In this document: piece after piece, positions 6,340 through 13,194 of the stretch
Layout: every line of letters begins with the position of its first letter
Numbering within the stretch: the first letter of the stretch is position 1
Origin: Escherichia phage ALITA
Sequence record: PP359570
Length of the DNA: 64,000 bases
Direction: 5' to 3' (one strand)
Notes under the pieces: model-generated
Told to the model about the DNA's origin: nothing
Database searches by the model: none
What the model saw: the letters and a program-made list of their open reading frames with translations, nothing else
Translations under genes and position numbers: made by a program

Positions 6340-6397
6340 TTGACAACGTTTTTTAATCTGATAAGATGTATCACATAGGGCGGCAATAGTGCCGCTC
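6340..6397 (+). promoter_or_regulatory. PeSL-like cassette: sigma70-type promoter + 5' stem-loop
   Basis: TTGACA-16 bp-TAAGAT then cacataGGGCGGCAatagTGCCGCtc hairpin, SD, ATG at 6420; approx. Confidence 0.6.
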
Positions 6398-6419
6398 ATA
6401 ACAGAAGAGAGAAATAATC

Positions 6420-6692
6420 ATGGCATCATATAGCGCATCAATGATTGTAAAGGGTATCACTGGTAAACCTATGCGCGGTGGCGGATCTTTCGCTAACATC
6501 AATATTGATGGACGTTTATCCCTGGACGCAGCGATCACAGTGGCACGGGAAACATTTAAAAAAGAATGTAATTTCAATAAACAAGATTATCTCGGTTTTG
6601 CTATTGAAAAAACCGCGCGCTTTGTGGATTATAAAAGCCCGAAAATGATCGACACTACACTAAAAGCGCAAGATGTAGCGTTTTTGCTTTAA
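6420..6692 (+). CDS. hypothetical early protein (90 aa)
   Basis: Immediately downstream of PeSL cassette; SD agaagagag. Confidence 0.6.
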   Translation: MASYSASMIVKGITGKPMRGGGSFANINIDGRLSLDAAITVARETFKKECNFNKQDYLGFAIEKTARFVDYKSPKMIDTTLKAQDVAFLL

Positions 6693-6695
6693 GAC

Positions 6696-6756
6696 TTGAC
6701 ACTGAAAAATAATTTGATAATATATACCACATAAGGCGGGGAAATGGTTTCCCGCC
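6696..6756 (+). promoter_or_regulatory. PeSL-like cassette
   Basis: TTGACA, AT-rich -10, GGCGGGGAAATGGTTTCCCGCC hairpin; approx. Confidence 0.6.
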
Positions 6757-6778
6757 AAATCAAAGAAAGGGTAATGCA

Positions 6779-7141
6779 ATGAGCAAGCAAATCAATACTA
6801 TCATGTTTAATCTGGTATCTTTCCGCGATGACGTGAAAAACCTTTCGCGTGATGCAGTGGATGCACGGATCGAAAGCTATCGCACACAGATCGCAACGTT
6901 ACCGCTGAAACGTGATCAACATGCCGCTAATATGATGCTTGATGCTATGATTAAAAAGATGATTCAATGTGATCTTACCCTGGCTTATGAATATGCTGGC
7001 GATCTCTTTGTAACATATAGCAAGCCCGTTCCAGGTATGAGCACCACGGAAGAATTGCATGCCTTAAATCTGCGACAAGATGCATGGGATAACATGCGCC
7101 GTGTTATGGTATGGGTAGAAAGCGGTAAAATTTACGAATAA
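6779..7141 (+). CDS. hypothetical early protein (120 aa)
   Basis: Downstream of PeSL cassette; SD aaagaaaggg. Confidence 0.6.
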   Translation: MSKQINTIMFNLVSFRDDVKNLSRDAVDARIESYRTQIATLPLKRDQHAANMMLDAMIKKMIQCDLTLAYEYAGDLFVTYSKPVPGMSTTEELHALNLRQDAWDNMRRVMVWVESGKIYE

Positions 7142-7147
7142 AAACGG

Positions 7148-7201
7148 TTGACATTGCACTAAAACCTGATAAGCTATCTTAAAGCGGGAATAGTTCCCGC
7201 T
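7148..7201 (+). promoter_or_regulatory. PeSL-like cassette
   Basis: TTGACA...gataag -10-like, aGCGGGAAtagTTCCCGCt hairpin; approx. Confidence 0.55.
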
Positions 7202-7219
7202 TACATAGGATAAAACTTT

Positions 7220-7366
7220 ATGAAACAATATGTAATGAGTATTCACACCAAAAACGGCGCTACTGTTACGACTCCGGCACGGTTTGCACTTGTAAACCGT
7301 TGCAAGAGACTAAAACGAGAGCTAAAAAACAACCGTGCAACGGGCTTTAAACGCTGGGGAGGATAA
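7220..7366 (+). CDS. small basic protein (48 aa)
   Basis: Below track cutoff; ATG 19 nt after cassette hairpin; MKQYVMSIHTKNGATV...; codon-counted. Confidence 0.4.
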   Translation: MKQYVMSIHTKNGATVTTPARFALVNRCKRLKRELKNNRATGFKRWGG

Positions 7367-7368
7367 TC

Positions 7369-7629
7369 TTGTTTTTTCTAAAAGTTTTTGATAATGTGAT
7401 CGCTTTTGAACATGCTACAACGTTCGACCTGGCGAGATACGCTATCAGGTTTAAAGATAATGTTTATCCCCGTGCTGGCGGCGGTTACACTATTTTTAAT
7501 CATCGCAACGCGCAACTAACTGATATAACTAATCCAGATCCTGGAGTGTATCGGATAGGCTGGCTACCGTCAAAAGATGCGGCAAGCATGTTTAAGGTAT
7601 GTAAACTACTAACAGAAGAGGCGAACTAA
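7369..7629 (+). CDS. hypothetical protein (86 aa), TTG start
   Basis: ORF-track ORF beginning at TTG 7 nt after GGAGGA. Confidence 0.4.
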   Translation: MFFLKVFDNVIAFEHATTFDLARYAIRFKDNVYPRAGGGYTIFNHRNAQLTDITNPDPGVYRIGWLPSKDAASMFKVCKLLTEEAN

Positions 7630-7630
7630 C

Positions 7631-8185
7631 ATGGGGCGTGAATATGTGATCCAGTCCTGGGTAAAGCATGATGCTAATGATCCGCGCATAATACCAGATG
7701 ACATGATCGATCACATGGTAGGGTATAGCGGGGAGCAGATAGGAAATCGAGCGGCAAAGAGCAACGGCAACACCAGGACGCGATCCGTTCGCCCTGGATG
7801 GCTGGCAAATGGTAACGCTGACATTGCAAGCGCCGCAGATCCAAGCGATGACGCTAAAAATAATCCCTTATACAGTATTGATCCGGCTTTTAAGGTGTTG
7901 GAAGAGTATCCCGCTAAATTAGCCGCACTAGATAAAGCATACGAAGAAAAACGGGTGGCATGGACTGTATACAACACCGCTAAAATGGTGCTAGATGCAA
8001 AATTGATTAAAGCCCAGGAGAAGATCAATAAACTTGTTACCATAGCGCAAGAGGAAGACCAGGACGACCAGGAGGAAGAGGAAGAAATCATGCCTAACCT
8101 GGAAGAGGAAGAGATCCAGCCATACACGCCGACAGAAGAGGAAAAAATACAAGCCTTAAAAAATTATAAAAATTGTATTGTGTAA
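7631..8185 (+). CDS. hypothetical protein with highly acidic C-terminus (184 aa)
   Basis: ORF-track ORF; C-terminal EEDQDDQEEEEEIMPNLEEEEIQP run. Confidence 0.5.
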   Translation: MGREYVIQSWVKHDANDPRIIPDDMIDHMVGYSGEQIGNRAAKSNGNTRTRSVRPGWLANGNADIASAADPSDDAKNNPLYSIDPAFKVLEEYPAKLAALDKAYEEKRVAWTVYNTAKMVLDAKLIKAQEKINKLVTIAQEEDQDDQEEEEEIMPNLEEEEIQPYTPTEEEKIQALKNYKNCIV

Positions 8186-11571: not shown

Positions 11572-11596
11572 CAGCATAGAAAGCACGTTATAAGAT
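11568..11596 (+). promoter_or_regulatory. sigma70-type promoter without hairpin
   Basis: TTGACA-17-TAAGAT; approx. Confidence 0.5.
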
Positions 11597-11618
11597 ACAC
11601 ACAACAAAGGAGAACTAC

Positions 11619-11921
11619 ATGAACGGCATAGCTAAAACGTTTTTTCTTTTTTCTGGTGTAAATGATCCATCAATAAAAGTCGATAGTGTAAAAGAAAACA
11701 ATACTATCACCGCTAAATTGTTTCAAGATGAAACAAATAACGTGCTAATCATTAATCTTAAAGAAATAACTAAAGGTTATTATACTATTGCTTACCATGC
11801 GATCTATCATGCTGGTACTAGCGAGGAAGTGCAAACAAGCAACAACGAAAGCGCGGCGCTACCTGGTGATCTGGTGCTGGGTGTTATTAGTTTAATTGTC
11901 AATGATTTTTTTAAGGAGTAA
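11619..11921 (+). CDS. hypothetical protein (100 aa)
   Basis: ORF-track ORF; aaaggagaa SD. Confidence 0.5.
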   Translation: MNGIAKTFFLFSGVNDPSIKVDSVKENNTITAKLFQDETNNVLIINLKEITKGYYTIAYHAIYHAGTSEEVQTSNNESAALPGDLVLGVISLIVNDFFKE

Positions 11922-12179
11922 AACCATGCCCTATTTACATTTATTTTTCGGGATCTTATTGTCAGGATCTTTTTTCTTCTGTATGCTTGTTTCTATTGTA
12001 AACCACGTTTTAAGACATTAAGGAAACAGCATGAAAATTATTCCCGTACAATATAGCGTAATAAATCCAGCATATGAGGAAGGAAGGAAAACAAGCATGG
12101 CTTTATGTTGTATTGTTACTATAGCCATGTTGTTATATATTGTGTTTTAATAGGTTTTATAGTTGTACGCTTTAAAGGC

Positions 12180-12242
12180 TTGACAATTTTTTGTTATGCT
12201 TTAAAATATATCTTGAAAACGGCAAAGGCCGCAAACAAAAGG
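12180..12242 (+). promoter_or_regulatory. PeSL-like cassette with short hairpin
   Basis: TTGACA...TAAAAT, short CGGCaaagGCCG hairpin; approx. Confidence 0.45.
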
Positions 12243-12250
12243 GTAAAATT

Positions 12251-12574
12251 ATGAAATCTGTGATCGGTGTTTATTTGGATAACTCTGATTTTTTCTATCA
12301 TCGCGCGCGTTTACTTGATGCTATTGAAATGATAGAATCAGGCTTTAAAGAGTATCGCCTTGCACATGATGACCTGGAAGCATTACAGGGCAATAGTGTT
12401 TTTACATTGCAAGCGAAAGCACTATGCAAAAGCCGGATCGAGATTGCAAGTAAAAAGATAGAGCGCGGCATGTCCTGGTTACGCACCGCAGAAATCAACA
12501 TGGGGCAATGGTACGGCAAAAACTTAGAAAATAAACATGCTTTTGTAAATGTAGAAAATATTGAAGATTATTGA
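12251..12574 (+). CDS. hypothetical protein (107 aa)
   Basis: Track ORF 12191..12574 trimmed to ATG after promoter (MKSVIGVYLD...). Confidence 0.5.
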   Translation: MKSVIGVYLDNSDFFYHRARLLDAIEMIESGFKEYRLAHDDLEALQGNSVFTLQAKALCKSRIEIASKKIERGMSWLRTAEINMGQWYGKNLENKHAFVNVENIEDY

Positions 12575-12636
12575 TTGACAGCACACCTGATAAGGAGTAT
12601 ATTGTATCTCATAGAGCGGGGAAATGGTTTCCCCGC
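12575..12636 (+). promoter_or_regulatory. PeSL-like cassette
   Basis: TTGACA-17-TATATT, GCGGGGAAATGGTTTCCCCGC hairpin; approx. Confidence 0.6.
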
Positions 12637-12656
12637 CTTAACAGAAGAGATAAGAT

Positions 12657-12941
12657 ATGAAGATCACAAAAGCACTTTCCAACTATGCAGCACGTCGCGG
12701 ATTATGCTTATCCGTTGAAAACTTAGGGAAAGAAGATTTTTTGTGCTTTTGGGAGCTTGAGAATGATAATGAGTGGATCTTCTCTTATTCTATCTGCAAA
12801 GATCAAAATGGTTGCTTGTTAACCTGGCGCGGTAATATCTATCTACCGGAAGAAATCAAAGAAGAATTACCAGGCACGATCATGACTGAGAAACAGCTTA
12901 AGGAAGTGATTAATTTTGTAGGGCAAAACATTAAAAAATAA
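12657..12941 (+). CDS. hypothetical protein (94 aa)
   Basis: Downstream of PeSL cassette; SD agaagagataag. Confidence 0.55.
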   Translation: MKITKALSNYAARRGLCLSVENLGKEDFLCFWELENDNEWIFSYSICKDQNGCLLTWRGNIYLPEEIKEELPGTIMTEKQLKEVINFVGQNIKK

Positions 12942-12942
12942 T

Positions 12943-13001
12943 TTGACACTAGGCAAACAACGTAGTAAAGTTTATCACATAGGGCGGCAATAGTGCCGCT
13001 C
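12943..13001 (+). promoter_or_regulatory. PeSL-like cassette (near-identical to the 6.37 kb copy)
   Basis: TTGACA, TAAAGT, tatcacataGGGCGGCAatagTGCCGCtcataacagaagagagaaataatcATG matches 6369-6422; approx. Confidence 0.6.
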
Positions 13002-13023
13002 ATAACAGAAGAGAGAAATAATC

Positions 13024-13194
13024 ATGATCCCAACTATGTTTTATGTATCGCGCAAAGGTCACAATATTTTTTGGTCTGAAGATTTAAATGAAGCCATGAC
13101 GTTTGCCCGTGATCGTGTTGCTATCGGTGGCGTTAATATTACCGTAACCGATGAAAACGGCATTGAATACTACAACGGCGACGATGAAGAGTAA
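13024..13194 (+). CDS. hypothetical small protein (56 aa)
   Basis: Below track cutoff; ATG right after duplicated cassette; MIPTMFYVSRKGHNIFW...; codon-counted. Confidence 0.45.
   Translation: MIPTMFYVSRKGHNIFWSEDLNEAMTFARDRVAIGGVNITVTDENGIEYYNGDDEE

Follow-up and report, generated by a model that had tools for sequence, protein, structure and literature searches.

The 64,000-nucleotide (nt) stretch of the Escherichia phage ALITA genome analysed here (sequence record PP359570; hereafter, the window) belongs to a Justusliebigvirus (phi92-like) coliphage, and its early region contains 16 hairpin cassettes, all on the + strand, that occupy positions 6340-15252, within ~9 kb. We propose, with a probability of roughly 60%, that these are early expression cassettes whose hairpin acts as a 5'-proximal stabiliser or insulator of the mRNA, and that the cassettes also serve as recombination substrates, much like the promoter-early stem-loops (PeSLs) of T4-like phages. 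A preliminary description of this DNA had placed a family of hairpins, differing in stem sequence and keeping their pairing, at 6369-13026. The family is real, but it extends further, to 15252, and has 16 members; the interpretation offered in that description was largely right.

The cassettes were identified by scanning for TTGACN-N16/17-TAnnnT and folding the sequence downstream. A promoter of the host sigma-70 type (TTGACA-N16/17-TAnnnT) precedes 14 of the 16 hairpins, and A-rich tracts (for example, AAAAAATATTCTTGACA) lie upstream of the cassette promoters. The order of elements is promoter, ~10 nt of GTAyCACRTAG, a GC hairpin of 8-11 base pairs (bp), a purine-rich leader and ATG. The hairpin starts ~10 nt past the -10 box (range, 6-12) and ends 17-23 nt before the ATG; the leader that follows it, ~20 nt long, is unpaired and purine-rich and carries a weak Shine-Dalgarno sequence. 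Sequence is conserved in the 16-nt block past the -10 box, GTAyCACRTAGGGCGG, and in the lower stem. The hairpins at 10046 and 13202 lack a promoter; both stand directly after the preceding stop codon, in AU-rich sequence.

In the window and the orthologous early regions of nine relatives, each of the 141 promoter-plus-hairpin units lies on the same strand as the genes, the opposite strand having none, and in 103 of the 141 the first paired base is 9-11 nt past the -10 box. In the window, the matches to a covariance model of the family were confined to 6372-15237 of the + strand, if reverse-strand echoes of the palindromes are set aside, and a scan of the other 96 kb of the close relative inny with the same model returned nothing convincing. 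BLAST matches to one cassette fell almost only in Stephanstirmvirinae. No cassette hairpins were detected behind the promoters of a Certrevirus region by a regex-plus-fold scan, and the covariance model gave a few hairpin matches in the same Certrevirus locus. The whole window had no match to any Rfam family at the gathering threshold.

The stems listed in the preliminary description are present: GCGGGAAA/TTTCCCGC (for example, at 9428-9448, 10308-10328, 14352-14372 and 15212-15230), GCGGCA/TGCCGC (6380-6395, 9747-9762 and 12984-12999), GGGGAA/TTCCCC (8747-8762) and GCGGTGG/CCACCGC (10046-10069). A further stem, GGCGGGG...CCCCGCC, likewise exists at 13202-13223, but its 5' arm had been drawn two G too long, with bases that belong to the loop. 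The predicted 5' untranslated regions (UTRs) have folding energies of -14 to -19 kcal/mol and are more stable than expected by chance (z-scores between -1.9 and -4.5 relative to dinucleotide shuffles); no minimum-energy fold pairs the Shine-Dalgarno region.

A MAFFT alignment of whole cassettes misaligned the apical stems, and we used instead an alignment to a covariance model seeded on the commonest hairpin class, which comprised 150 matches in the window and the nine relatives, reducing to 86 distinct rows. Standard pairs filled 97.1% of its cells, and five of nine pairs showed changes on both sides (for example, 63 GC against 18 CG, and 53 AU against 9 GC). These pairing measures were reached by none of 500 shuffles, and shifting the 3' partners by 1-3 columns abolished the pairing signal. 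Covariation of the aligned hairpins had been named beforehand as the test of selection on structure over one fixed operator; it was found, with the caveat of a lower stem that is conserved in sequence, and the preference for structure was upheld. Across the ten phages there are 50 distinct hairpin sequences, with loops that vary between genera (UGG, UAG, AUGG, AAC, UGU and ACAAG). Because so many different, near-perfectly paired hairpins hold one fixed position, selection on pairing is hard to avoid. Part of the apparent covariation consists of whole hairpins exchanged between paralogous cassettes, not of stepwise mutation. The comparison of sequences supports the view that pairing rather than sequence has been maintained in the hairpins, although, with the lower stem and the preceding block conserved in sequence, the pattern is not one of pure covariation.

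When only + strand rows were counted, pairs of the G.U type outnumbered those of the A.C type in the sense orientation (45 versus 9). This excess favours folding of the sense RNA over a cruciform or a duplex operator, so that of the two structures originally considered, RNA or cruciform, the first gains support and the second is disfavoured. The distance from the conserved GCGG block to the conserved CCGC block varies between 8 and 14 nt. Because this spacing varies, as do the length (3-6 nt) and sequence of the loop, a rigid dimeric DNA operator does not fit.

Initiation at sigma-70 promoters generally takes place 7-8 nt past the -10 box, at a purine following a pyrimidine. A start at the conserved C-R step, 7-8 nt past the -10 box, would leave 2-4 unpaired nt before the stem. 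In the mechanism that we propose, a host sigma-70 promoter close to consensus, preceded by an A-rich tract, would drive each small early gene of unknown function, and the hairpin, acting in the sense RNA and close to its 5' end, would protect early mRNAs against RppH and RNase E, the agents of 5'-end-dependent decay, and insulate the ribosome site from upstream sequence. The promoter-less copies may perform the same task in read-through polycistronic transcripts, either after processing or by hindering access of RNase E. Among the three roles suggested earlier (5' stabiliser, processing site and boxB-like antitermination hairpin), that of a 5' stabiliser would fit the geometry best. The leader of T7 gene 10 is a phage example of a 5' stem-loop stabiliser. 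In E. coli, 5'-terminal stem-loops are an established means of stabilising mRNAs against 5'-end-dependent decay (Emory et al. 1992, as cited in PMC7509114). At the DNA level, ~16 near-identical cassettes in the same orientation within 9 kb would constitute portable homology, and recombination and short-patch conversion between them could delete, insert, move and re-pair open reading frames (ORFs), hairpins and promoters.

The second part of this proposal, recombination between cassettes, was also raised in the preliminary description, which noted that the cassettes at ~6369-6422 and ~12973-13026 looked identical through the start codon and might allow ORFs to be swapped between promoters. The two segments are identical at 54 of 54 positions, ending exactly at the G of ATG. 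A comparison of the window with itself showed that this 54-mer is its longest exact direct repeat; the second longest, of 32 nt (6739/9431), likewise joins two cassettes. At cassette 12, which holds the second copy, the window and inny differ at three positions, exactly those at which the window matches its own cassette 1. Because the differences coincide in this way, the 54-nt identity is probably the recent product of short-patch gene conversion. A deletion of the 6.6 kb between the identical 54-mers was looked for in the nine aligned relatives, and none was seen.

The evidence for exchange proved stronger than had been proposed. Local blastn comparison of window positions 5000-17000 with the nine relatives gave 43 distinct homology breakpoints, 19 of which fall inside cassettes, although cassettes make up 17.5% of the region (binomial p = 4e-5); several more lie no further than ~10 nt from a cassette edge. 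In Paula and phi92, the ORF at 8786-8968 is missing and there is a single, chimeric cassette, with a -35 box and spacer that match cassette 5 of the window and a -10 box, hairpin and ribosome site that match cassette 6. In SD2, promoter 6078 is joined directly to the hairpin of cassette 1, and the sequence between the 5' arm of hairpin 10308 (cassette 10) and an internal GCGGGAAA is deleted. At cassette 12, SD2 diverges inside the stem and regains homology at the CACATAGGGCGG of cassette 14, and phi92 diverges just past the hairpin and regains homology at the A-tract belonging to the following promoter. The array of Phapecoctavirus has a different order of ORFs; the homologue of ORF 6420 lies elsewhere in it, and homology over 6355-6755 extends exactly from cassette to cassette. 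Re-pairing is clearest at the orthologous promoter 12943. The window and inny both have a class A hairpin behind it but differ in the Shine-Dalgarno region (version 1 in the window, version 2 in inny); Paula combines version 2 with a class B hairpin; and phi92 and SD2 have other ORFs altogether behind this promoter. These arrangements support the conclusion that related phages have swapped genes, presumably by recombining inside cassettes.

Several observations weigh against the reading of the cassettes as stabilised early transcription units that recombine. The single-stranded 5' end of 2-4 nt is a prediction from the general rule for sigma-70 initiation. Four promoters in the array (8266, 11103, 11568 and 12180) have no hairpin or a weak one only, and in a Vequintavirus early region related hairpins with different loops stand behind some promoters only; because of these cases, early expression does not require the hairpin. 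Sequence is conserved in the lower stem (GGCGG/CCGCC) and in the 10 nt that lead up to it; the stem and the preceding block (T2, A3, C7, T9, A10 and G11-G13) are conserved to about the same degree as the promoter's variable positions. Such conservation beyond the needs of the structure could reflect a sequence-specific factor or homogenisation by gene conversion. The covariation counts overstate independence, since the rows are related paralogues and orthologues and the alignment was fitted to the model, and the alignment takes in some reverse-strand matches to palindromic stems; the covariation numbers are supportive, not decisive. As regards breakpoints, gene-sized exchanges end in intergenic DNA under any model, and nearly all intergenic DNA here is cassette.

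A sequence-specific binder of the conserved block is a serious alternative to a stabiliser, although we regard it as unlikely. The hairpin and the conserved CAYRTAGGGCGG block would then be the binding site of a phage or host protein that switches the early genes together, either an RNA-binding translational repressor or nuclease like RegA or RegB or a protein bound to a DNA operator over +1 to +25. The 16-nt block and the lower stem, in which sequence and not just pairing is kept, would be so explained, as would the A-U-R-G common to many loops and the confinement of every copy to one co-regulated early region. A binder of this kind is harder to reconcile with the apical stem and with loops that vary in length (3-6 nt) and in sequence (UGG, UAG, AUGG, ACAAG, AAC and UGU). 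For its DNA form, the range of 8 to 14 nt in GCGG-CCGC spacing speaks against a dimeric operator, and the excess of G.U over A.C speaks against recognition of duplex DNA. No candidate binder was identified, and no search aimed at one was made.

A role for the hairpins as RNA processing or decay-barrier sites within read-through polycistronic transcripts, rather than as 5' caps, seems less probable still; it overlaps with the stabiliser explanation. On this view, RNase E would cleave upstream, in an AU-rich stretch, or 3' exonucleases would be stopped by the hairpin. The promoter-less hairpins at 10046 and 13202 suit this possibility, being placed directly after a stop codon in AU-rich sequence, and read-through transcripts are to be expected because there are just three terminators in the 9-kb array. 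The fixed distance of 10 nt that separates 14 of the 16 hairpins from a strong promoter would, however, be needless for an internal site. RNase III sites, which require ~20 bp or more of double-stranded RNA, were considered separately and rejected, as the stems, mostly of 8-11 bp, are too short.

We rate as similarly doubtful the more far-reaching idea that the cassettes are not just passive homology and that the CAYRTAGGGCGG block and hairpin form a dedicated signal, by which a phage factor would mark early mRNAs as 'self' for protection while the phage directs host RNA decay at host transcripts, or by which a recombination function would move promoter-less hairpin, ribosome-binding-site and ORF modules between promoters. 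If such a module-moving function existed, the array would be an integron-like gene-cassette system for phage accessory genes.

That the hairpins are transcription terminators or attenuators, as PeSL stem-loops are, is improbable. The Paula record (LR865361) labels the same hairpins 'terminator' on the reverse strand, one PeSL stem-loop has been shown to terminate transcription (PMC2839356), and hairpins 10308 and 13202 fit the terminator pattern on the - strand. On the gene strand, however, A/G-rich leaders follow the hairpins, and most have CTATGTGATAC, not a T run, behind them on the opposite strand; by this sequence criterion only, intrinsic terminators were rejected, a T run being missing on both strands in 13 of 15 hairpins. 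A terminator 10 nt past its own promoter and ahead of its own gene would also defeat the promoter's purpose. The true terminators of the array look different: the scan of its + strand flagged those at 10864, 14797 and 15958 only, and no cassette hairpin.

We give slightly less credence to the possibility that the conserved 20-mer is a phage-specific promoter, or that it has no function of its own and is a passenger that gene conversion has homogenised. In favour, RTAGGGCGGCAATGGTGCCG is annotated in the phAPEC8 record (JX561091) as 'putative promoter determined with PHIRE', and gene conversion between cassettes is evident. PHIRE, however, detects over-represented 20-mers only, and a near-consensus sigma-70 promoter stands 10 nt upstream of each motif. 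The related phage rV5 has consensus sigma-70 promoters genome-wide, from which its authors inferred that the host polymerase may not be modified (PMC3606486), a further point against a phage-specific promoter. Hitch-hiking, for its part, would hold neither 97% pairing over 50 hairpin sequences nor the preference for G.U over A.C.

Least probable of all is the earlier suggestion of boxB-like hairpins, which as nut sites would equip RNA polymerase with an antitermination factor. It would agree with promoter-proximal RNA hairpins in an early, operon-like array with terminators. It is disfavoured because no boxA-like sequence adjoins any hairpin (YGCTCTTWA has five matches, no more than chance would give, and none of them within 6000-16000), because the stems are of 8-11 bp with loops of 3-6 nt (UGG, UAG and AUAG among them) instead of a 5-bp stem and GNRA-like pentaloop, and because 16 copies, most with their own promoter, far exceed the need of antitermination.

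The individual cassettes, all on the + strand, are as follows. Cassette 1 (6340-6422) has its promoter at 6340-6367 (TTGACA-16-TAAGAT), a hairpin at 6378-6397 (GGGCGGCA-AUAG-UGCCGCUC) and the ATG of a 90-amino-acid ORF at 6420; its positions 6369-6422 are one copy of the exact 54-nt repeat. Cassette 2 (6696-6781) consists of a promoter at 6696-6723, a hairpin at 6735-6756 (GGCGGGGAAA-UGG-UUUCCCGCC) and an ATG at 6779, which opens a 120-amino-acid ORF. The promoter of cassette 3 (7148-7222) lies at 7148-7175 and has the -10 box TAAGCT; the hairpin (7182-7202; AAGCGGGAA-UAG-UUCCCGCUU) starts only 6 nt past this box, and the ATG is at 7220. Cassette 4 (8189-8245), with a promoter at 8189-8217 and a hairpin at 8228-8245 (GAGCGGGG-CAA-CCCCCUC), has no ATG of its own; downstream of it, a consensus promoter without a hairpin (8266-8293) drives the ATG at 8331. 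In cassette 5 (8703-8788), the promoter (8703-8730) and hairpin (8741-8766; AGGACGGGGGAA-CGG-UUUCCCCUCCU) precede the ATG at 8786 of a 60-amino-acid ORF that is absent from Paula and phi92. Cassette 6 (8971-9056) combines a consensus promoter (8971-8998) and a hairpin at 9009-9033 (GAGAGCGGGAA-UAG-UUCCCGCCUC) with the ATG at 9054 of a 79-amino-acid DUF7249 ORF. Cassette 7 (9389-9473) has its promoter at 9389-9416, its hairpin at 9428-9448 (GGCGGGAAA-UGG-UUUCCCGCC) and its ATG at 9471, and cassette 8 (9707-9788) has a promoter at 9707-9734, a hairpin at 9745-9764 that equals that of cassette 1, and an ATG at 9786.

Cassette 9 (10046-10094) has no recognisable promoter; its hairpin (AGGCGGUGG-AAUAGC-CCACCGCCU) occupies 10046-10069, and the ATG is at 10092. 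A promoter at 10270-10298, a hairpin at 10308-10328 and an ATG at 10349 with a 119-amino-acid ORF make up cassette 10 (10270-10351). Cassette 11 (12575-12659) carries its promoter at 12575-12603, its hairpin at 12616-12636 (GCGGGGAAA-UGG-UUUCCCCGC) and its ATG at 12657. Cassette 12 (12943-13026), with promoter 12943-12971, hairpin 12982-13001 and the ATG of a 56-amino-acid ORF at 13024, contains the second copy of the exact 54-nt repeat at 12973-13026. The promoter-less hairpin of cassette 13 (13202-13245) follows right after the stop of the previous ORF (13202-13223; GGCGGGG-GGAGUAUU-CCCCGCC), with an ATG at 13243. Cassette 14 (13514-13596) has a promoter at 13514-13541, a hairpin at 13552-13575 (GGGCG..GC-AAUAAG-GC..CGCCC) and an ATG at 13594, as read from the sequence, that opens a 34-codon ORF. 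Promoter 14314-14341, hairpin 14352-14372 and the ATG at 14396 of a 129-amino-acid ORF form cassette 15 (14314-14398), and promoter 15171-15199, hairpin 15210-15232 and the ATG at 15250 of a 77-amino-acid ORF form cassette 16 (15171-15252). Three intrinsic terminators complete the array. One, at 10864-10888, is bidirectional, lies inside the array and consists of a hairpin between A and T runs, in contrast to the cassette hairpins; the second, at 14797-14825 on the + strand, is a hairpin followed by a T run; and the third, at 15958-15976, also on the + strand, stands at the end of the array.

Window positions 6000-14000 are 96-97% identical to Justusliebigvirus coliphages (inny, Paula and others), 96% identical to phi92 itself over the shared part and ~85-89% identical to Phapecoctavirus (the phAPEC8 group). 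In phi92, the equivalent early region sits just inside the right terminal repeat. The ORFs of the cassette region are small and on the + strand, and all ten that were scanned match PHROG families of unknown function; one of the ten also matches DUF7249. Which genes are present in this region differs from relative to relative. The 71-amino-acid ORF at 9786-10001, equivalent to 5480-5695 of inny, is named 'phosphoribosylpyrophosphate synthetase' in several records. It had no match in Pfam and matched nothing but a PHROG family of unknown function. The name is probably an annotation error that has been propagated. Single array ORFs at 8725-9046, 13501-13923 and 15250-15513 have DNA matches of ~88-90% in unrelated phage groups, namely ~360-kb jumbo phages, Vequintavirinae and a T7-like Kayfunavirus, which suggests that gene-by-gene horizontal exchange may reach beyond the subfamily.

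Other features were noted around the array and elsewhere in the window. A non-coding stretch of ~1 kb includes three direct repeats of ~70 nt at 5089-5307 (TTATTTAAAGTTTTT...TTTTGAAAATGAAAAGTTCAA), and the inny record annotates a repeat_region at the equivalent place; these repeats could be an origin or a packaging-related region. Six window matches to 19-mers like the E. coli Fur-box consensus GATAATGATAATCATTATC were found at no more than three mismatches, versus 0.04 expected: three clustered at 5325-5419, in the non-coding DNA that immediately precedes the cassette array, two from the two strands of a single site just downstream of the array (17120-17138), and one at 29594-29612. These sites could serve the phage for iron- or Fur-linked control or for titration of Fur. 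An identical terminator-like hairpin of 28 nt (AAACCCGCTTCGGCGGGTTTTCTTGTAT) occurs at 2873-2900 and 27831-27858, 25 kb apart. A tRNA scan of the window found none.

Three described systems invite comparison with the cassettes. The nut sites of lambda are similarly promoter-proximal RNA hairpins in early transcripts, and differ in that the cassettes have longer stems, loops not of the GNRA type, no boxA close by and many copies, most of which have their own promoter. The 5' UTR of ompA (Emory, Bouvet and Belasco 1992, as cited in PMC7509114) resembles the cassettes in having a stable hairpin within a few nt of the 5' end, a position predicted here, followed by an unstructured leader and ribosome site. 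In both the ompA and the T7 gene 10 leaders, as would be the case here, function depends on pairing rather than on sequence. Those are, however, single, experimentally tested leaders, whereas the cassettes are ~16 paralogous copies with a predicted 5' position and a stem partly conserved in sequence.

T4-like phages have the closest described system, the PeSLs (Arbiol et al. 2010, PMC2839356; Comeau et al. 2014, PMC4122927). In both systems the repeat is a composite of ~80-100 bp in which an AT-rich tract and a strong early promoter of the sigma-70 type are combined with a G/C-rich stem-loop, a Shine-Dalgarno sequence and a start codon; the repeats cluster in a hyperplastic region populated by small genes of unknown function; and indel and replacement junctions between close relatives lie inside the repeats. 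The PeSL stem-loop, however, mostly stands in the promoter spacer, between -35 and -10, or overlaps the -10 box and is a terminator or attenuator for upstream transcription, whereas the cassette hairpin lies ~10 nt past the -10 box, in its own 5' UTR, and has no U tract. Because these defining features of position and termination differ, we do not call the cassettes PeSLs; they are PeSL-like in evolutionary behaviour. They also belong to another lineage, Stephanstirmvirinae, with no sequence homology between the repeats. Excision as encapsidated mini-circles is a feature of the PeSLs. Elsewhere in the window, GC hairpins unrelated in sequence to the cassette family directly follow promoter-like sites on the - strand (55338, 51800, 49602, 37951 and 30037), some with T runs (for example, AAACCCCCTTGAGGGGGTTTATT) and then a Shine-Dalgarno sequence and ATG; these promoter/terminator composites are closer to the original PeSL layout than the cassettes are.

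We found no published description of this cassette in Stephanstirmvirinae, although the phi92 and phAPEC8 genome papers may mention it briefly. The PHIRE-promoter label of phAPEC8 and the reverse-strand terminator label of Paula refer to the same sequences at orthologous positions, and neither fits, because the motif is downstream of a sigma-70 promoter and has no T run; two conflicting annotations of one motif can thus be corrected. With its ~50 sequence variants, this compact natural part of promoter, 5' hairpin and ribosome-binding site would be useful for testing how 5' structure affects mRNA life in infected cells. The cassette would represent a new form of the PeSL-type design, in which regulatory units double as recombination substrates for accessory genes and the hairpin is part of the mRNA. 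It would extend the PeSL idea to unrelated large coliphages that are widely isolated for therapy (phi92- and phAPEC8-like) and explain the mosaic early region of these phages.

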